DNA of 64,000 nt from a virus. The DNA lies in IMG/VR virus record IMGVR_UViG_3300025816_000002. One strand, given 5' to 3'. Under the pieces are notes generated by a model that had not been told where the DNA came from, did no database searches, and saw only the letters and a list, made by a program, of their open reading frames with translations. A program made the translations under genes and the position numbers. Below are positions 8,575 to 45,431 of this stretch, in pieces; within the stretch, counting starts at the first letter, position 1; the number at the start of each line of letters is the position of its first letter.

Positions 8575-8730
8575 ATGACGCTAGGAGACTTCAAACTATA
8601 CACGATAAATACATTGGCATTAGGCGTTACTACATTTACTAAAATAGAAATGGGATTAAAAATATTCTTATTACTAGTTACTATAGGCTACACTATGTCT
8701 AAATGGTTCAAACTTAAAAAGGATAAATAA
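8575..8730 (+). CDS. Small membrane protein, holin-like
   Basis: 51 aa not in the ORF track (MTLGDFKLYTINTLALGVTTFTKIEMGLKIFLLLVTIGYTMSKWFKLKKDK); hydrophobic segments and basic tail; fills the gap. Confidence 0.65.
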   Translation: MTLGDFKLYTINTLALGVTTFTKIEMGLKIFLLLVTIGYTMSKWFKLKKDK

Positions 8731-16271: not shown

Positions 16272-16498
16272 TGAGTTCTATTATAAGAAAAATTAGCATA
16301 GGTTCTGATTACAAGAACGATGCCATGCATTATTCCGTAGGGCAGCAAGTTTACGGGGGGCACATAATCTCCGACATACTGCACGACAATTCTACGAACT
16401 CATACAGTATCTTTATAAAAAAACAAGACGAGGTTATGCCATGGAAGAAATTTAACTCTAACATGGCAATATCCGTTGAGTATGACTTAGAATACTAA
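16271..16498 (+). CDS. Hypothetical protein
   Basis: 75 aa; TAATG coupling at both ends. Confidence 0.75.
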   Translation: MSSIIRKISIGSDYKNDAMHYSVGQQVYGGHIISDILHDNSTNSYSIFIKKQDEVMPWKKFNSNMAISVEYDLEY

Positions 16499-17103
16499 TG
16501 AGAAGCTTGTACGATTTTATCATCAAACCTTTAGGTGATAGATACGAAAACGAATTAAAGCTCGGTAATAAAACTTTAGTTTTAAATACCAAAATAGAAA
16601 GCTTCAAGTCAGTAAATAATTTGGCTGTCGTAGTTGAAACACCGAAAGCTTTTAAAACAAATATAAAGAAGGGCGACATAATAGTTATACACCACAATGT
16701 TTTTAGAGTATTCTACGACATGAAAGGCGTTAAAAAAAATAGCAGATCATTTTTTAAAGACGATTTATATTTTTGTGCTATTGACCAGATATATTTGTAT
16801 AAAAATACAGGGGATTGGAAATCATTTGGAGACAGATGTTTTGTAATGCCTTTGAAAAATAAAGACTCTCTAAGGATAGATAAAGAGCAAAAGCTTATTG
16901 GTATACTAAAATACGGTAATAAGTCCTTAGATGCGCTTAAAATAAGCCCAGGAGATGTAGTAGGCTTTACGCCTAACAGTGAATGGGATTTTATTATAGA
17001 CGATCAAAGAGTTTATTGTATGAAATCTAATGATATTGTAATTAAGTATGAACACGAAGGAAACGAAGAAGAGTATAATCCTAGCTGGGCAAAAAGCGGT
17101 TGA
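16498..17103 (+). CDS. Tandem GroES-like co-chaperonin
   Basis: Two GroES-like halves: FIIKP...AVVVETP...IKKGDIIV and CFVMP...GILKYG...ISPGDVVGF...IDDQRVYCMKSNDIV. Confidence 0.65.
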   Translation: MRSLYDFIIKPLGDRYENELKLGNKTLVLNTKIESFKSVNNLAVVVETPKAFKTNIKKGDIIVIHHNVFRVFYDMKGVKKNSRSFFKDDLYFCAIDQIYLYKNTGDWKSFGDRCFVMPLKNKDSLRIDKEQKLIGILKYGNKSLDALKISPGDVVGFTPNSEWDFIIDDQRVYCMKSNDIVIKYEHEGNEEEYNPSWAKSG

Positions 17104-17323
17104 AGAATTAATTAAAGTAGCTAAAGAAGCTATTGTTGATTCTGGAGACGATATAACAGCTGATAGATTAAAAAACGCTGCAGCTACAAAAAAATTAGCT
17201 ATATTCGATGCTTTTGAAATACTCAACAGAATAGAAGAAGAGGAAGCTTTGTTGAATGATAATCCAAAAGAAGTTAAAGAAGAAAAAACTTTTAGAGGAT
17301 TTGCAGAAGGAAGATCTAGGTAA
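17048..17323 (+). CDS. terS: Probable terminase small subunit
   Basis: 91 aa helical, immediately upstream of and coupled (TAATG) to terL. Confidence 0.5.
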   Translation: MNTKETKKSIILAGQKAVEELIKVAKEAIVDSGDDITADRLKNAAATKKLAIFDAFEILNRIEEEEALLNDNPKEVKEEKTFRGFAEGRSR

Positions 17324-19533
17324 TGTACGAGCAAAGTTTAGTAACGGTATTAAAAGACTATGTAAAACCTAAAGTAATCAATAGATTAAATAGGTATAAG
17401 AAATGGAAATACGGATACAATAAAGAGCATGATCTTATTGTTATAAGTAAGACTGGTGAAATTGGTGAAATATATAATATACAAGGATTAATTATAGGTC
17501 TACCTAAAAAAGAAAATGTAACCGAGTTTGAATCTGACAAATGGGAGTATCAACAGTATCCTAAAGAACTAAGTAAAATTAAATCAGTATTTGATTGGGA
17601 TGAATACCCGGTTGAGTTTAAAGAAAAATGGTATGACTATATTGACACAGAGTTTAAAAGGCGTGAAGAAGGCTTTTGGTTTATTAATAAAGGCAAGCCT
17701 ACTTATATTACTGGCACTAACTACATGTACTTGCAGTGGTCCAAAATTGATGTTGGGCAACCAGACTTTAGGGAATCAAACAGATTATTCTATTTATTCT
17801 GGGAAGCTTGTAAGGCAGATAAACGGTGTTACGGAATGTGTTATCTTAAGAACCGACGGTCAGGTTTCTCTTTCATGGCATCAGGCGAGACGGTTAATCA
17901 GGCAACAATATCCACAGATTCAAGATTTGGCATTTTATCAAAGTCAGGGCCAGACGCCAAAAAGATGTTTACTGATAAGGTCGTCCCCATTTCGGTTAAT
18001 TACCCCTTCTTCTTCAAACCAATCCAGGACGGTATGGACAGGCCGAAGACGGAACTCGCGTACAGGGTACCCGCGTCAAAGTTTACCCGTAAGAAACTCG
18101 ACACCAACGAGAAACTACAGGAGATCACCGGTCTCGATACAACGATCGACTGGAAGAACACCGGGGACAACTCGTACGACGGTGAAAAATTAAAACTACT
18201 AGTACACGACGAAAGTGGAAAGTGGGAAAGACCTACAAATATATTAAACAACTGGAGGGTAACTAAAACTTGTTTAAGATTAGGTTCTAGAATTATAGGT
18301 AAGTGTATGATGGGTTCAACGTCAAATGCTTTAGACAAAGGAGGAGAGAATTTTAAAAAACTTTATTATGATTCAGATGTCGAAAAAAGAAACGCCAATG
18401 GACAGACTCGTTCAGGACTCTATAGTTTGTTCATACCTATGGAATGGAACTACGAAGGATACATTGATTCTTATGGATTTCCTGTATTCAACACGCCGAA
18501 AGATGCAATTGAGGGGCCGCAAGGAGATCTAATAGATCAAGGAGTTATTGATTATTGGCAAAACGAAGTTGATGGCTTAAAGAGTGATCAAGACGGTTTA
18601 AATGAATACTATCGCCAGTTTCCAAGAACAGAGCAACACGCTTTTAGAGATGAAACAAAGCAGTCACTGTTTAATCTTACTAAAATATACGAACAAGTAG
18701 ATTACAATGAAGATCTAAGAAATAGCTCGATAGTAACTACAGGAAGCTTCCAATGGGAAAATGGTATAAAAGATTCTAAGGTTTTATTTATGCCTAACAA
18801 AAATGGTAGATTTAAAATCACGTGGGTTCCTCCGGTTGAATTACAAAACAGAGTAATAACAAAAGGCAACACAAGATATCCTGGTAATGAGCACTGTGGC
18901 GCTTTCGGATGCGATAGTTATGATATATCAGGTACAGTAGATAATAGAGGTTCTAATGGAGCCCTGCATGGTTTAACTAAGTTTAGCATGGAAGATGTTC
19001 CGCCTAATAGATTCTTTTTAGAATATATAGCTAGACCGCAAACAGCTGAAATGTTTTTTGAAGATGTATTAATGGCTTGCGTATTTTACGGTATGCCAAT
19101 ATTAGCAGAAAACAATAAGCCTAGATTGCTTTATCATTTTAAAAGAAGAGGCTACAGGGGTTACTCTATGAATAGACCGGACAAAAAGTACAATAAATTA
19201 TCGATAACCGAAAGAGAGATAGGTGGAATTCCTAATTCAAGTGAAGACATTAAACAGGCCCATGCTGCAGCTATAGAAACATACATAGAAACTTTTGTAG
19301 GCCAAAACAAAGAAGGCTACGGTGATATGTATTTTCAAAGAACACTTGAAGATTGGGCTAAGTTTAATATAAATAACAGGACAAAGCACGATGCTTCTAT
19401 AAGTTCAGGGTTGGCTATAATGGCTTGCAATAAAAATTTATACGCACCAAACAGTCCTGTACATAAGAAAATTTACAATTTAGGATTTAAAAAGTTTGAC
19501 AATAGAGGTTCTTTGTCTAAAATAATAAAATAA
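17323..19533 (+). CDS. terL: Terminase large subunit
   Basis: LKNRRSGFS Walker A region, LLVHDESGK Walker B, GSTSN motif III, GCDSYD nuclease, HDDASISSGLA-like end. Confidence 0.93.
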   Translation: MYEQSLVTVLKDYVKPKVINRLNRYKKWKYGYNKEHDLIVISKTGEIGEIYNIQGLIIGLPKKENVTEFESDKWEYQQYPKELSKIKSVFDWDEYPVEFKEKWYDYIDTEFKRREEGFWFINKGKPTYITGTNYMYLQWSKIDVGQPDFRESNRLFYLFWEACKADKRCYGMCYLKNRRSGFSFMASGETVNQATISTDSRFGILSKSGPDAKKMFTDKVVPISVNYPFFFKPIQDGMDRPKTELAYRVPASKFTRKKLDTNEKLQEITGLDTTIDWKNTGDNSYDGEKLKLLVHDESGKWERPTNILNNWRVTKTCLRLGSRIIGKCMMGSTSNALDKGGENFKKLYYDSDVEKRNANGQTRSGLYSLFIPMEWNYEGYIDSYGFPVFNTPKDAIEGPQGDLIDQGVIDYWQNEVDGLKSDQDGLNEYYRQFPRTEQHAFRDETKQSLFNLTKIYEQVDYNEDLRNSSIVTTGSFQWENGIKDSKVLFMPNKNGRFKITWVPPVELQNRVITKGNTRYPGNEHCGAFGCDSYDISGTVDNRGSNGALHGLTKFSMEDVPPNRFFLEYIARPQTAEMFFEDVLMACVFYGMPILAENNKPRLLYHFKRRGYRGYSMNRPDKKYNKLSITEREIGGIPNSSEDIKQAHAAAIETYIETFVGQNKEGYGDMYFQRTLEDWAKFNINNRTKHDASISSGLAIMACNKNLYAPNSPVHKKIYNLGFKKFDNRGSLSKIIK
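17633..18193 (+). CDS. Candidate nested (+1 frame) lipoprotein inside terL
   Basis: Frame open for 200 codons (17591-18193); basic n-region, hydrophobic LLILLALTT then Cys; GC shift that ends at its stop. Confidence 0.45.
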   Translation: MTILTQSLKGVKKAFGLLIKASLLILLALTTCTCSGPKLMLGNQTLGNQTDYSIYSGKLVRQINGVTECVILRTDGQVSLSWHQARRLIRQQYPQIQDLAFYQSQGQTPKRCLLIRSSPFRLITPSSSNQSRTVWTGRRRNSRTGYPRQSLPVRNSTPTRNYRRSPVSIQRSTGRTPGTTRTTVKN

Positions 19534-42000: not shown

Positions 42001-44648
42001 CTGCTGAATTTGCTGCTAAAAGCGATGAAATGGCGGCTAAAGGCGCTGATTTTGACTTTATTGAGTTTAGTAAAGTTATGAATGGTCAAGAAGGTCCTTT
42101 ATTGAAAGTAGCTAAAATCATAGCGGAAAAAAGAGGTACTGATGATTTGTTTGTTTTAACTGCTAGGCCGCAAGATGCCGCAGGTCCTATACAAGATTTT
42201 TTAGCTGAACTAGGTTTAGATATTCCATTAGAAAATATTACCGGTTTAGCTGACGGAAACCCTAAAGCAAAAGCTGACTGGATGGTTGGTAAAGTAGCTG
42301 AAGGCTATAATGATTTTTACTTTGCTGATGACCACTTAGGAAATGTCAAAGCTGTTAAAGATGTATTTAATACTTTCGATGTGAAAGGTAAAGTGCAACA
42401 AGCTAAAATTAAATTTAGTAAAGGTTTAGATAAAGGCTTTAATGATATGATTGAGCGTCAAACCGGTACAGAATCTTTTAAAGAATTTTCTAAAGGGGTA
42501 GCGCAAAGAAGAGGTAAAAAGGTTGGAAAGTTTAAAATATTTGTTTCACCTTCGGCTGAAGACTTTAGAGGATTAACTCAATATAAGTTTGCAGGCAAAG
42601 GCAAGCAAGGTGAAGCTGATCAAAAATTCTTTGAAGAAGCGCTTATGGACCCTTATTTTAAAGGTGTTGCCGCACTAGAGTCCGCAAGAGAGGTTATAAA
42701 GAACGACACTAAAGCTCTTTTTAAAATATTTAAACCTGTTAAAAAGAAATTAAATAAGTTAGTTCCAGGTATTGATTTTACTTATGACGGCGCTGTTCGT
42801 GTTTATCTTTGGAATAAGGCAGGTATAGAAATACCAGGTCTTACTAAAAGAGATAACAAAAAACTAAATGATACTGTAGCAAACGATCCAGAGCTTAGCG
42901 CTTTTGCGGATGCTCTATTATTGGTATCCAAACAAGACACGTGGCCTGCGCCTACTGAATACTGGGAAGCAAAAACAACCTTAAGTGATTTAAACACTTT
43001 AACTGAAAAAACTAATAGAAAAGAATACTTACAAGAGTTTATTGAGAACGTTGACATTATATTTAGCGAAAAGAACTTAAATAAAGTTGAAGCTTTATAC
43101 GGTAAAGCATCAAGAACCGCTATTGAAAACGCTATATACGCTATGAAGACAGGTAGCAATAGCCCTAATCAAAACGGAGATGTTATAACAAACAGATGGC
43201 TAAAGTGGGTTAATAACTCTATAGGTACGATAATGTTCTTCAATAGAAGATCAGCATTGTTACAGTTAACATCTGCTACAAACTTTTTAAACTGGTCAGA
43301 TAATAATCCAGCTAAAGCAGCATTGGCTTTTGCTAATCAACCACAATACTGGAAAGATTGGGCTATGATATTTAACTCTGATAAATTAAAACAACGTAGA
43401 AGTGGTTTAAAATCTGATGTTCAAGAATCTGAAATAGCTAACGCAGCTAAAAACACGGAAGATAAAATAGGTTCAATCATAGCTTACTTATTAAAAATAG
43501 GTTTTTCACCAACACAAATAGCGGATAGTATCGCTATATCTTCAGGTGGTGCAACTTTTTATAGAAACAGAGTTAATACTTATAAGAAACAGGGGTTAGA
43601 CGTAAAAGAAGCAGAAGCAAAAGCTTTTGAAGATTTTAGTAAGCTTTCTGACGAAGCACAACAGTCAGGAGATCCTGCTTTAGTTTCTCAACAACAGCGA
43701 AGCGTTGCGGGTCGTCTTATCTTGTCCTTTCAGAATACGACTATGCAATACACTAGATTAATGAAAAAAGCCGGTCAGGACCTTGTAAACAGGCGTGGTG
43801 ATCCAAAGACTCATATATCTAAAATATTATACTATGGCGCTTTACAAAACCTCATATTTAACGCGTTATCTCAAACCGCATTTGCATTAATACCTGGCTT
43901 TGACGAAGAAGAGGATGAAGATGAAGCTAAAAGAGATGAAAAACTTGAAGCAAAGGCGTCTAGAGTTTTAAATGGTATGGTAGATTCTGTTATTAGAGGT
44001 ACCGGTATATACGGGGCTGTTGTCACTACTATAAAAAACACATTCAATACTTGGAAAAGAGAAGCTGATAAAGGTTTTAAAGGTGATCAAGCTAAGACGC
44101 TTCTTGAAGCAGCTAACATATCTCCAGCTATAGGATCTAAACTTAGGAAAATATACTCAGCAATACAAGCATATCAATTTGATAAAGCGGTAATGGAGAA
44201 GCATCCTTGGAGTGTAACTATAGACGGTAAGTTTAATCCTTCAGCTACATACAGCGTAATAGGTAGTTTAGCGTCAGCGACTCTTAACTTGCCATTAGAT
44301 AGAGCTTTAGCAGAAGCTAGAGGCGTAGCTGAAATGTTTGACAACAGGAACAGTGAAATGCAAAGAATAGCGTTAGCCTTAGGGTGGAGAACATGGAATG
44401 TTGGCGCTAAAAATGAAGAGTTTGATCTTATAAAAATGGAAGCTAAAGCTAAAAAGAAAGAAGAAGGCAAAATAAAAGCAAAAGAAACTAGAGCAAAAAA
44501 TAGAAAAATAAAAAAATTAGAAAATGAAAGAAGAGACAAAGCTTTTAATACTTTAAACTCAACTCAGCGTAAAGAAATCTTTCAAATGAATACTACAGAT
44601 AGAAAAGCGTATTTAGACAAAATAGCAAAACAAAAAGGTATAAAATAA
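36060..44648 (+). CDS. Giant polyvalent virion/ejection protein (zincin, HAD, ART-like domains)
   Basis: 2862 aa; AAHEFLH (38565-38579); DFDDT...LTAR...K...FADD HAD motifs (41508-42340) interrupted by an FHG...YFS...IVVF domain. Confidence 0.8.
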   Translation: MYIYDGSKYTEEEIQNAADKAGLSLEEYTSKNNITFEEEVDFPTSAVADADAVQQPMTASQAGYTEPKDTASSSVVGLSDSRIEEIEKNFKVGYYHPEQREAYKNWEETGKVDGSLLPDFNVDDYKKTERVINDDFRKEVEKIYQESAKGVKLDKFGSFDYDDKESIANFRDRAINKLIKENKTIQDKILPQATSQAKFEFDSANDKLKEKYGINSKNVSQENIDNYTKEATAQFNALVNSKVNSTPEFKQIITDFNSVMDETGRVGLEAFTRGKDWEGLMSLERGLQASNNPLSKLVFKFIQQTYAGGKQIKDGLDEAGVYGAIQMNERFISQLDDFKGKETNKIKNKYLEEGYTEEQASLGANEDIKSQKGWWRESEDDLANAFKFVKITSENQTIPSGVTKGTFQDYENSVNKKTEAEDLSIRGRLIDVADQQLATSAYGTDEFKNFMKGDNMLENSVSMVGKQLLPQMGIAILTAGVGNAIQMGSGMYVDGINNKIREKYGLSDEEEITQDMLKNVISDDEFIDVLVTKSVAGGFLAGQLERLGAGKLLSNLTNEGAASILRTGIKRYAQRVGGQTIRNFSTGATEAITEVLQEVLSASVAGGELDKEQLFEAGGTGFLVSAMTGLGGNVITQTVQEVKTLNRIVAGKLNPESAEAFFNTKSAEIDNILKTETNPSKIQELKEKKQSILDARNANLKIPSNFSTAAKEKIFNLVEEKQNIEKEIKNKDPELVRNQTDRIKEINTELNVISSLETQVKTVEKLTKDVKGLKVESLDNAEAISNFIEENNIDVDGKKASQQQGFIYQDPKTGEQIIIINKEVAAKEYAVNVAAHEFLHGLLFQTVKNSPETQVALGKSLNEYINKIDATQVKDSNFAKRLESYKDMDEATQSEEVLTLFSDAIATGDIQFNESVFTKIGDVIRRTLQNLGVKVKFNNGKDVYNFVKDYNKSIEKGKLTKAQKEISKKGATGSLVSEQVQESKPGIKESKQLTPEQDTQLRSDVAEIKEEASKGEALAKQFNKDFVKGAKQTRLENKVLQEIKPVVDRVVTNRTKALYDPIAEDAKKNVSRQMFQESMRSDIESMVFDEFTGKQDLEKFIVNRAFLRANNLAERLGIKGVEEGITKGLEAAEKVAVEETTAPKADKPKYRNILKSNTLPTETVNTIKDKVLKTVRTLKSKLDTKVSINKTVTPLVAEIKKNMGKQADIDFKKAMGGKKDAQLRRFLIKNKRVVLENMTTTWLMGAMPGAVQKQVNGSFTSDWQGKKIDREKTSTQQAGRTSGAEIVRRLPNAFKNLDDKTYLSYIIDESGAPIRGRKESLAKAMAEELSFDIFTTELQNENSDIRKAFEGNQEALGVVLVDNYIQEVTRDVERGTVKFSKSLSAEQKKTVLAGAEKLKNKLLNANITLTSKSLLPILIDTYPSIDEKTLKEFAKESIQVVQRYTSDKTIDRTKNVDFGKFLFEGISLKESNSNLIKFFNFAKNEVKSLGGLFNNNNLVAKQRELEFTYNNNLVEKEGADGLIKILRWGRGHQATSGKIGGGRNQSYAGNGDYIANNLNNIPGVDVVWNPKTNRINDVKFNGKSIEDWKKRIKSPAQKASGGIDQFKKEAKEREDAAREAWVYLTDYLQHVKDNGNAIDWTMTMMSLKSNMSSVLKAAAPVKYYFAGDVKGSLRYEHMIPTEYMVLKLTDYYFNGKKFDLNTLRDKYNVAIIPVSMDDNFNILTQSQMNSAFDPMTDPEFDRYYNENTFGFPNMYAIEALTGEYKGQIIGKSWVDFNNILKPQAAKMSKSVQTEQKAIDNARSVKWSKSTKKIRVFDFDDTLARTKSNVLYTMPGEVRVFHGGDIKSVKDIDGFVYFSEDQKQASAYAKGNQGEVSSFKIDETSLATEDQVFDVINALGIKPRAGYAVEESSLYELIDPRFEQSFSKKDLEKLAVALKRKGIKAARFTDTNISQGKNEGRETENIVVFDKKTVQEQAKLTAAEFAAKSDEMAAKGADFDFIEFSKVMNGQEGPLLKVAKIIAEKRGTDDLFVLTARPQDAAGPIQDFLAELGLDIPLENITGLADGNPKAKADWMVGKVAEGYNDFYFADDHLGNVKAVKDVFNTFDVKGKVQQAKIKFSKGLDKGFNDMIERQTGTESFKEFSKGVAQRRGKKVGKFKIFVSPSAEDFRGLTQYKFAGKGKQGEADQKFFEEALMDPYFKGVAALESAREVIKNDTKALFKIFKPVKKKLNKLVPGIDFTYDGAVRVYLWNKAGIEIPGLTKRDNKKLNDTVANDPELSAFADALLLVSKQDTWPAPTEYWEAKTTLSDLNTLTEKTNRKEYLQEFIENVDIIFSEKNLNKVEALYGKASRTAIENAIYAMKTGSNSPNQNGDVITNRWLKWVNNSIGTIMFFNRRSALLQLTSATNFLNWSDNNPAKAALAFANQPQYWKDWAMIFNSDKLKQRRSGLKSDVQESEIANAAKNTEDKIGSIIAYLLKIGFSPTQIADSIAISSGGATFYRNRVNTYKKQGLDVKEAEAKAFEDFSKLSDEAQQSGDPALVSQQQRSVAGRLILSFQNTTMQYTRLMKKAGQDLVNRRGDPKTHISKILYYGALQNLIFNALSQTAFALIPGFDEEEDEDEAKRDEKLEAKASRVLNGMVDSVIRGTGIYGAVVTTIKNTFNTWKREADKGFKGDQAKTLLEAANISPAIGSKLRKIYSAIQAYQFDKAVMEKHPWSVTIDGKFNPSATYSVIGSLASATLNLPLDRALAEARGVAEMFDNRNSEMQRIALALGWRTWNVGAKNEEFDLIKMEAKAKKKEEGKIKAKETRAKNRKIKKLENERRDKAFNTLNSTQRKEIFQMNTTDRKAYLDKIAKQKGIK

Positions 44649-45007
44649 TGAAGTTTAAATATTTTAATTACGAAGAGTTTGACTCTCCAGACTTAGAGGG
44701 TAGTGGTAAAAATATGAGTGATGAACTTATAAATATGCTAGACATCGTACGTAAAAAGTACAGTAAGTCGGTAGTTATAAATTCTGGCTATAGAACACCT
44801 GAACATAACGAGAAAGTAGGTGGCAAACCTGGTTCATCTCACATAAAAGGTTTAGCTGTTGACATTGCATGCAGTAATTCTACTGACAGGTTTAAACTAG
44901 GAGGTATATTAAGAGAAGTTGGATTTAAAAGAATAGGCATGGGTTCAACATTTATACATGTAGATATAGATAAAGATAAATCACAAAACGTCCTTTGGAC
45001 ATATTAA
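44648..45007 (+). CDS. Endolysin, peptidase M15 family
   Basis: INSGYRTPEHN..VGG...SSHIKGLAVDI...FIHVD. Confidence 0.88.
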   Translation: MKFKYFNYEEFDSPDLEGSGKNMSDELINMLDIVRKKYSKSVVINSGYRTPEHNEKVGGKPGSSHIKGLAVDIACSNSTDRFKLGGILREVGFKRIGMGSTFIHVDIDKDKSQNVLWTY

Positions 45008-45018
45008 AACCAAAAACT

Positions 45019-45162
45019 ATGAATATTAAATGCGGATCACCATTCAAATTGAAAGATGCTTGCTACAAAAAAGTAAAAGCACAGTACAAAGTATTTCCGT
45101 CAGCTTATGCCAGCGGAGCAATAGCTAAGTGTAGAAAAAATAAAGGTAAAAAGAAAAAATAA
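45019..45162 (+). CDS. 47-aa basic protein
   Basis: Not in the track: MNIKCGSPFKLKDACYKKVKAQYKVFPSAYASGAIAKCRKNKGKKKK; TAATG coupling to next gene. Confidence 0.75.
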   Translation: MNIKCGSPFKLKDACYKKVKAQYKVFPSAYASGAIAKCRKNKGKKKK

Positions 45163-45431
45163 TGTATATATCACCATTAAGTAAAGTTAGGAAAAGCGAA
45201 AAAGGCGCAAGTCTGCGAAGATGGTTTAAAGAAGAATGGCAAACACCTAGTGGAGATAAAGACTATAGCGGTGGTGAAAACTTGTTTAGACCTAAGAAGA
45301 GAATAAGCAGTAAAACAGCTACTACCTGGAGCGAGTTAACTCCTGCTGAAAAAAAATCAGCTCAGAGAGAAAAAAATGCTAAAGGTAGAGTTAGTAGATT
45401 TAAAAAGAAAAAGAAAAAAAGTAAATTATGA
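45162..45431 (+). CDS. Small basic protein
   Basis: 89 aa; SPL near N-terminus, LRRWFKEEW, poly-K end. Confidence 0.75.
   Translation: MYISPLSKVRKSEKGASLRRWFKEEWQTPSGDKDYSGGENLFRPKKRISSKTATTWSELTPAEKKSAQREKNAKGRVSRFKKKKKKSKL

Follow-up and report, generated by a model that had tools for sequence, protein, structure and literature searches.

A probable accessory gene overprinted on the large terminase gene of a marine phage, with a reading frame open in most close relatives

In phage lambda, the gene Rz1 is nested in the +1 frame of Rz, which is the known layout of an embedded o-spanin. Gene finders forbid long same-strand overlaps, and tailed phages are therefore assumed to be without overprinted genes beyond nested spanins. 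Overprinted viral genes usually have a narrow range, high disorder, an unusual basic composition, and an accessory role, and the silent sites of the older gene are constrained (PMC8227390, PMC6195259). Outer-membrane disruption can also be achieved by a cationic protein, disruptin gp28 of coliphage phiKT, which replaces spanins (10.1101/515445). Here, we analyzed 64,000 nucleotides of DNA from an uncultured marine phage, IMG/VR record IMGVR_UViG_3300025816_000002 (the whole stretch is called the window), in which the large terminase gene, terL, contains a long open reading frame (ORF) in its +1 frame. An earlier note, made from the sequence of this DNA, had proposed that the ORF is a hidden gene for an outer-membrane lipoprotein. 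Comparison with relatives indicates that the nested ORF is very likely a real protein-coding gene, and we consider it probable that it is an overprinted accessory gene for an envelope-targeted late protein. The features at the center of the analysis are as follows.

17323..19533, plus strand: terL, the host gene, encoding a large terminase of 736 amino acids (PHROG 6681, terminase large subunit, E 3e-163)
17591..18193, plus strand: maximal +1-frame ORF inside terL, 200 amino acids from a TTG start (from the ORF list)
17633..18193, plus strand: likeliest nested coding sequence, ATG to TAA, 186 amino acids (P0001), with an ATG that is kept in relatives
17950..18192, plus strand: patch of high GC content at third codon positions (GC3), with terL synonymously recoded where the nested tail is most basic (from GC3 by codon position)

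The ORF of 200 amino acids described in the earlier note was confirmed, and the stop-to-stop open run to which it belongs comprises 206 codons beginning at 17573. Translation from the ATG at 17633 yields a product of 186 amino acids that starts exactly as the note had quoted and contains Cys32; the corresponding gene overlaps terL codons 104-290. The longest same-strand alternative-frame run in ten other large late genes of the window is 80 codons. When terL of the window was resampled with gene-wide codon usage, approximately 10 (10.2) +1 stops were expected and 0 of 600 trials were stop-free. A synonymous shuffle within the region expected 3.4 stops, again with 0 of 600 trials stop-free. The open +1 run of the window is far beyond chance.

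The hand-counted GC values of the note were exact (48.3% at 18061-18120, 55.0% at 18121-18180, and 28.3% at 18241-18300). The rise lies almost wholly at the third codon positions of terL, with the first and second positions unchanged. GC3 is approximately 0.68 over 17950-18192 (0.65-0.75 across approximately 17953-18190), compared with approximately 0.25 elsewhere in terL and 0.27 downstream. The third position of a terL codon is the second position of a +1 codon, where G or C gives Arg, Ser, Thr, Pro, or Gly and not Lys, Asn, Ile, or a stop, which explains the patch. Over 17633-17950 GC3 is only 0.35-0.45, yet the +1 frame is open there too.

Relatives were taken from IMG/VR (the best 80 of more than 600, with 77-91% TerL identity) and codon-aligned, and +1 stops were counted between the equivalents of 17633 and 18190. 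Class counts and means refer to the 79 relatives without ambiguous bases and the window itself; L077, which has an N and stands outside the counts, is also stop-free. The alleles fall into three classes.

Fully open class, n = 47: 0 +1 stops, ORF of 186-220 amino acids from ATG, patch GC3 mostly 0.5-0.65
Short class, n = 10: 1-3 stops near the ends, ORF of 125-182 amino acids with other starts or ends
ORF-less class, n = 23: 5-13 stops, without the GC3 patch except in L070 and L072

The GC shift belongs to the nested gene, as the note had supposed: the patch occurs across all fully open alleles, with GC3 of only 0.31-0.36 in three of them, and is absent from the ORF-less ones apart from the two just named. 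A hold-out set of 15 contigs from a second scan repeated the open and closed pattern (seven with 0 stops, four with 2-4, and four with 5-12), including the limitation of the GC3 patch to open alleles. The stop avoidance across terL homologues that the note had suggested as a test was thereby borne out, 47 of 80 alleles and 7 of the 15 hold-out contigs being stop-free.

Openness was then compared with local shuffles, in which synonymous codons are swapped among positions with the same residue in the region; this leaves unchanged the TerL protein, local GC3, and bases 1 and 2 of each +1 codon. Such shuffles expect 3-6 stops, whereas each fully open sequence has 0 (P < 0.01 apiece), and genome-like (gene-wide) codon usage would expect approximately 10. 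In two equal-sized control regions of the same genes, observed stops were close to expectation (median P 0.3-0.66). The +2 frame and the three antisense frames contain 7-18 stops in the same sequences, leaving +1 as the sole open frame. Codons of the form xTA make up 36.5% before C or T and 0% before A or G within the region, compared with 50% in both next-base contexts outside it. The region tree of the open alleles spans 5.9 substitutions per site. On it, the third base changed at least 114 times at 16 stop-prone columns and never became A, while at 16 harmless columns it changed 107 times and the share of A is 37%. Taken together, relatives keep the frame open beyond their own codon usage, in agreement with the hidden gene that the note had proposed, and these codon patterns indicate that selection maintains the open frame in most relatives. 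ORF-less alleles have slightly fewer stops than the shuffles predict, which would fit decay after loss.

Constraint on individual residues was detected by comparing columns. In eight degenerate terL codons, one third base reaches at least 90% among open alleles without exceeding 50% among ORF-less ones; four of these codons lie in the N-terminal leader of the nested product, one is a stop-avoiding site, and three are scattered in its tail. The four leader columns, fixed only in ORF-bearing alleles, correspond to the +1 residues Leu27, Thr33, Cys34, and Ser35. The Tyr-Leu codons at 17728-17733 read TAC-[T/C]TG in 57/57 ORF-bearing alleles. Since the choice of the Leu codon is free in TerL, the occurrence of NTG in 57/57 ORF-bearing alleles versus 8/23 ORF-less ones shows that Cys34 is selected. 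CAG is used at the Cys-Thr-Cys-Ser-Gly motif in 44/47 fully open alleles. Cys32, Cys69, and Cys112, on the other hand, are forced by the terL codon pairs Met-Tyr, Met-Cys, and Met-Phe. The caveat of the note that the Cys motif might be a by-product of terL is thus correct for these three residues and not for Cys34.

Silent-site divergence of terL between the closest ORF-bearing pairs is about halved over the leader (0.059 versus 0.113 downstream), and ORF-less pairs show neither this reduction nor the rise that ORF-bearing pairs show over the tail. Synonymous-site conservation, which the note had put forward as a sign of a hidden gene, is therefore found over the leader, but fails over the tail. 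Residue-level conservation of the tail was not found apart from Thr45, Leu72, Ser172, and Thr180. These comparisons indicate that the leader and the Cys motif are under residue-level constraint and that the tail is constrained in openness and composition only, the GC3 patch being its footprint on the silent sites of terL. A simple codon-diversity profile gave no reduction over the ORF; it was replaced by pairwise silent-site divergence because codon evenness rises with GC3. The TerL protein is unaltered, in that the distance between ORF-bearing and ORF-less alleles is no larger than that within the ORF-less group. The overlap sits on the most conserved stretch of TerL at no visible price to it.

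The nested gene is accessory, as approximately a quarter to a third of the relatives carry terL without it. No free-standing copy was found in the ORF-less genomes, one of which is 100% complete, so the gene is dispensable. In the terL tree built from the part beyond 18300 the allele types are dispersed, and at least 10 changes of type are forced, while the region tree (17632-18192) groups them; L038 (open) and L045 (7 stops) are a sister pair a short distance apart in the downstream tree. The disagreement between the two trees indicates that terL is mosaic, its N-terminal part consisting of exchangeable allele types moved by recombination inside the gene. The nested gene was most likely born by overprinting. 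Rooting with MW202828.1, an uncultured virome genome with 64% TerL identity, involves a long outgroup branch (1.1) and weak support, so the ORF-less clade may be ancestral or may reflect secondary loss. MW202828.1 itself has 10 +1 stops, and neither it nor Cellulophaga phage phi13:2 contains an alternative-frame ORF of at least 80 codons or a GC3 patch. A "hypothetical protein" listed under the terL match of these two genomes was considered as a counterpart and proved to be merely the upstream neighbor. Elemo phages (Flavobacterium hosts) and the Cellulophaga, Tenacibaculum, and Maribacter phages share at most 45% TerL identity with this phage. The length of terL is equal in ORF-bearing and ORF-less alleles, no intein insertion was found in TerL, and no nuclease domain was found in the nested product (Pfam, PHROG). 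An out-of-frame homing endonuclease within a terL intein was ruled out, as there is no insert and the overlap is TerL's own conserved core.

The predicted product, 186 amino acids long here and 186-220 in relatives, consists of three parts.

17636..17734, plus strand: N-terminal helix, residues 2-34, with a Lys-rich start and a hydrophobic core (AlphaFold2, predicted local distance difference test [pLDDT] 53-74)
17726..17740, plus strand: Cys-Thr-Cys-Ser-Gly motif, residues 32-36, closing the hydrophobic core (codons fixed in ORF-bearing alleles)
17741..18190, plus strand: basic Arg/Ser/Thr/Pro-rich disordered tail, residues 37-186 (pLDDT <50 throughout)

The AlphaFold2 model, computed with a 45-sequence alignment, has a mean pLDDT of 43 and comprises one helix, the rest being disordered. 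The hydrophobic core covers approximately residues 14-31 (17672-17725). The leader carries Lys9, Lys12, Lys13, and Lys20, followed by Ala-Ser-Leu-Leu-Ile-Leu-Leu-Ala-Leu-Thr-Thr. It thus has a start of the lipoprotein type (positive charge and a hydrophobic core of at least 7 residues), a pattern kept in relatives, in nearly all of which the maximum Kyte-Doolittle 15-mer score ahead of the motif is 2.0-2.9. All family members are basic, with a whole-protein isoelectric point of 9.3-11.9 and a net charge of +7 to +32; the tail alone has a mean charge of approximately +15 in fully open alleles. When the tail of ORF-bearing alleles is compared with the same frame of ORF-less ones, the values are 15.5 versus 5.6 for Arg, 40 versus 16 for Ser, Thr, and Pro together, and 43 versus 65 for hydrophobic residues. 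The nested protein has no match in Pfam or PHROG, and its best matches in a language-model atlas (0.76-0.78) are in the noise range. Gene callers have occasionally called the nested ORF, as seen in 73 database hits, all without a name or Pfam domain. A profile search of 1.8 billion representatives returned 154 clusters (50% identity) that, judged by length and match ranges, are apparently the nested ORF or pieces of it; no free-standing relative was apparent among these representatives.

Regarding expression, one further feature precedes the start codon.

17617..17632, plus strand: A-rich, Shine-Dalgarno-free stretch before the ATG, encoding terL Phe-Lys-Glu-Lys-Trp (read from the sequence)

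The ATG at 17633 is kept in 44/47 fully open relatives (94%) versus 14/23 ORF-less ones (61%), and in many fully open relatives a stop at 17615 closes the frame just upstream of it. Flavobacteria initiate translation in A-rich, Shine-Dalgarno-free contexts (PMC6847099), and it is plausible that the stretch is a start context of this Bacteroidota type. Its conservation in all relatives follows from that of TerL at this place, and the stretch is accordingly permissive and not specific. Cover by metatranscriptome contigs is nearly absent over 17342-17570; this gap is no evidence of a transcript start, as the contigs come from relatives and this is the least conserved part of terL.

The account that we favor is as follows. 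The nested gene is probably translated from the ATG at 17633 on the late messenger RNA (mRNA). Its product would start with a Lys-rich N-terminus, continue as a hydrophobic helix up to the selected Cys-Thr-Cys-Ser-Gly motif, and end in a disordered Arg/Ser/Thr/Pro-rich tail of approximately 150 residues. The leader may target the protein to the cell envelope late in infection, where the cationic tail could help to breach the outer membrane at lysis or could mask a surface structure. While the account as a whole is probable, an envelope-acting function of the tail is put forward tentatively, as a possibility to which we give somewhat less than even weight.

Two alternatives concern whether the ORF is a separate gene. 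In the more radical one there is no gene, and the open frame is a by-product, either of a GC-rich tract that recombination introduced from a relative of higher GC content or of some RNA or DNA element within terL. Stop codons are AT-rich and so are fewer in a GC3-rich tract, terL is clearly mosaic, and the tail residues are not conserved, all of which speak for such a by-product. The shuffles that keep local GC3 nevertheless expect stops, the control regions are neutral, only one of five alternative frames shows the effect, and the open run includes the segment of low GC3 at 17633-17950. Moreover, L070 and L072 are uniformly GC-richer (GC3 0.45-0.59 throughout) and yet have 9-10 +1 stops, so GC content alone does not open the frame, and the codon choices at Cys34 are unrelated to GC content, e.g., TTG for TTA before C. 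The RNA fold of the patch is not unusually stable (z = +0.76 versus shuffles) and has no Rfam match, by which an RNA structure was rejected as the origin of the patch. We regard the absence of a gene as extremely improbable. The other alternative is that the +1 frame is expressed as a fusion of the N-terminal 100-120 residues of TerL to the nested sequence, through ribosomal (+1) or polymerase slippage at GGT-TTT-TGG (17671-17679; GGC TTT TGG in the window and GGT TTT TGG in most relatives). UUU-U followed by a single Trp codon (UGG) is a classic +1-slippage-prone pattern, and in 57/57 ORF-bearing alleles, with or without the ATG, the frame is already open upstream of the T-run, no later than 17651. 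Public protein sets contain several chimeras of the TerL N-terminus and the nested ORF, e.g., L084:350-1219, and two unrelated contigs, one of them an Illumina MEGAHIT contig, share the loss of one T in the run and are joined exactly there. But the same T-run is present in ORF-less alleles, the ATG is enriched in ORF-bearing ones, and the slippery pattern is missing from four fully open alleles (TTC-TGG in L035 and L044, TAT-TGG in L038, and TTT-TCG in L060), by which a programmed frameshift was rejected as the main route of expression. The junctions of the other chimeras fall at A- or G-runs or at deletions, as sequencing errors or defective genomes would produce. Given these varied junctions and the four alleles without the pattern, the fusions are probably errors or defective genomes made visible by the open frame, and expression by slippage is very unlikely.

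Two further alternatives accept the gene and assign its product differently. The earlier note had suggested an outer-membrane lipoprotein, either an o-spanin or an exclusion factor, which signal peptidase II would cleave ahead of Cys32 or Cys34 and which would carry a lipid. Several features suit this suggestion: the Lys-rich start and hydrophobic core lead directly to a Cys with no polar stretch between, Cys34 and the small flanking residues Thr33 and Ser35 are selected, and the invariant Cys of a lipoprotein is present, Cys34 being kept in 57/57 ORF-bearing alleles. TerL NYMYLQW allows only Thr or Ile at position -1, and the Thr found before Cys34 in 57/57 is the nearest possible lipobox. 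Nested +1-frame o-spanins are a known layout, and the statement of the note that no spanin is recognized elsewhere in the window was upheld, as ORF inspection and a lipobox scan of the 64 kb revealed none, with no spanin pair apparent and an endolysin and a holin-like ORF present. As stated, however, the proposal does not hold. The lipobox of PROSITE PS51257/DOLOP, [LVI][ASTVI][GAS]-Cys, needs Gly, Ala, or Ser at -1, whereas in every relative Cys34 is preceded by Thr, and Cys32 by Thr, Ile, or Met. Two ORF starts in the window pass the rule, an in-frame internal ATG near the terL 3' end and an antisense-strand ORF; neither is gene-like, and the nested ORF is not among them. The host gene is terL and not an i-spanin gene, no i-spanin-like partner was seen, and the endolysin gene (44648-45007) is approximately 26 kb away. 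O-spanins are short, with a Pro-rich periplasmic part of about 40-100 amino acids, in contrast to the length and strong charge of this family with its mature part of approximately 150 residues, and the look-alike annotated "Lipoprotein" in the language-model search (0.77) is within the noise range. A lipidated outer-membrane protein is thus unlikely. The main alternative to an envelope function is a real but cytoplasmic protein whose basic tail binds nucleic acid, as a charge-neutralizing or packaging helper or an internal virion protein, with an N-terminal helix that serves oligomerization or targeting and not membrane insertion. This would agree with the extreme positive charge and disorder, with co-expression with the packaging enzyme by construction, and with the presence of several other small, very basic late proteins in the window; in addition, strongly basic stretches are hard to export under the positive-inside rule. 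It fits less well that residue-level constraint is limited to the hydrophobic segment and the Cys motif and spares the basic tail, that the hydrophobic core, 14-21 residues long, is similar to a signal or anchor, and that almost no charge is found in the 30 residues directly following the motif, as would suit the initiation of export. We consider a cytoplasmic role slightly less probable still than lipidation.

Several points weigh against the overprinted, envelope-targeted gene that we favor. Ten relatives have other starts or shorter ORFs, and 3 are without an ATG before 17750. The ATG and its A-rich context are imposed by conserved TerL residues and are also found in 14/23 ORF-less alleles, and are therefore nonspecific. 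Marine metatranscriptome contigs from four studies span the region and cannot separate the nested gene from terL mRNA. Silent-site divergence over the tail is not reduced but raised (0.16-0.23 versus 0.11 in the closest pairs), and the tail sequence itself is consequently not conserved. The function is read from sequence features, the lipobox rule fails, and the tail is unusually basic for an exported protein. Finally, the zero-stop group is partly defined by that very trait, so the codon-context and turnover counts are not fully independent. This last concern is answered by the outgroup-rooted region tree, in which 42 fully open alleles form one clade not defined by stop count, and by the independent hold-out set.

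A bolder interpretation, which we find doubtful, would make the ORF a young de novo gene over the terL ATPase core in a widespread clade of marine Flavobacteriia podoviruses, and its product a new class of envelope-acting cationic protein. The product would then be a lipid- or helix-anchored outer-membrane disruptor, or a receptor-masking factor. The tail would be under diversifying and not purifying selection, with terL silent sites evolving up to twice as fast there, and the presence/absence polymorphism would be kept by recombination inside terL. In that case, the GC3 patch would be the visible footprint of adaptive recoding of an essential gene.

The surroundings of the nested ORF were also inspected. 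The order GroES-like gene, small ORF, terL, and portal is common to phage phi13:2; here the GroES-like co-chaperonin gene lies at 16498-17103 (PHROG 13932, E 4e-22), two genes upstream of terL. The ORF at 8575-8730, the sole holin-like ORF seen on the late strand, encodes 51 amino acids with two moderately hydrophobic segments and a charged C-terminus, and is 36 kb from the endolysin gene. Directly after the endolysin gene are two small, very basic ORFs with Lys-rich ends, 45019-45162 (47-55 amino acids) and 45162-45431 (89 amino acids), which are candidates for lysis accessory or internal proteins. Within terL, downstream of the nested ORF, codon choice at 18400-18470 is near-fixed in all 80 relatives of any allele type (Leu TTG 0.94, Phe TTC 0.88, Pro CCT 0.94, and Tyr TAC 0.94). 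The segment forms a synonymous-constraint island; it contains no long alternative-frame ORF and matches nothing in Rfam. Metagenome runs from marine, estuary, or sediment samples, at least 14 in number and drawn from a dozen studies, contain DNA nearly identical to 17000-18700, and contigs of relatives are present in six metatranscriptome runs; the phage group is therefore common in the sea and probably active. A near-identity DNA search of phage records with the window DNA gave no match.

If the overprinted gene is real, it sits on one of the most conserved phage genes, and the GC3 patch would show that the silent sites of an essential gene can be recoded for a second product. Alleles with the full ORF, a short ORF, or no ORF coexist and recombine, and provide a natural series for gene birth or loss. 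The product is a candidate envelope factor for phages of Bacteroidota, whose lysis at the outer membrane is poorly understood. Public databases already list mis-called and chimeric "proteins" that stem from the open +1 frame.

Both overprinted genes and lysis genes nested in a +1 frame have precedents, and an overprint on the terL core would be a new case; the literature searched contained no report of one, polymorphic by recombination inside the gene. Like lambda Rz1, the ORF is nested whole in the +1 frame of a late gene, and its product would have a hydrophobic leader with Cys at its end, followed by an unstructured mature part rich in Ser, Thr, and Pro. It differs from Rz1 in its host, a terminase ATPase domain and not an i-spanin, in the Thr at -1, in its strongly cationic product of three times the length, in its distance from the endolysin gene, and in its absence from many close relatives. 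The lysis gene E of PhiX174, in the +1 frame of the scaffold gene D, is likewise overprinted on an essential assembly or structural gene, and E and the single-gene lysis proteins of small phages share with the predicted product a constrained N-terminal membrane helix and a basic, poorly conserved C-terminal part. E, however, has 91 amino acids and is the sole lysis function of a tiny single-stranded DNA (ssDNA) phage, whereas this is a double-stranded DNA phage of 60-70 kb with its own endolysin and holin-like ORF, and there is no sequence similarity. The phiKT protein gp28 is also cationic and offers a precedent for a very basic late protein in a phage without a recognizable spanin; it is a 56-residue amphipathic helix from a free-standing gene, unlike the hydrophobic leader and predicted disordered tail of 150 residues described here, which together are three times longer. 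With overprinted accessory genes in general, the nested ORF shares the narrow range, the disorder, the basic composition, the accessory role, and the constraint on silent sites, here those of terL. Most documented overprints are found in small RNA or ssDNA viruses, whereas this one would extend over 186-220 codons of the terL gene of a large tailed phage.

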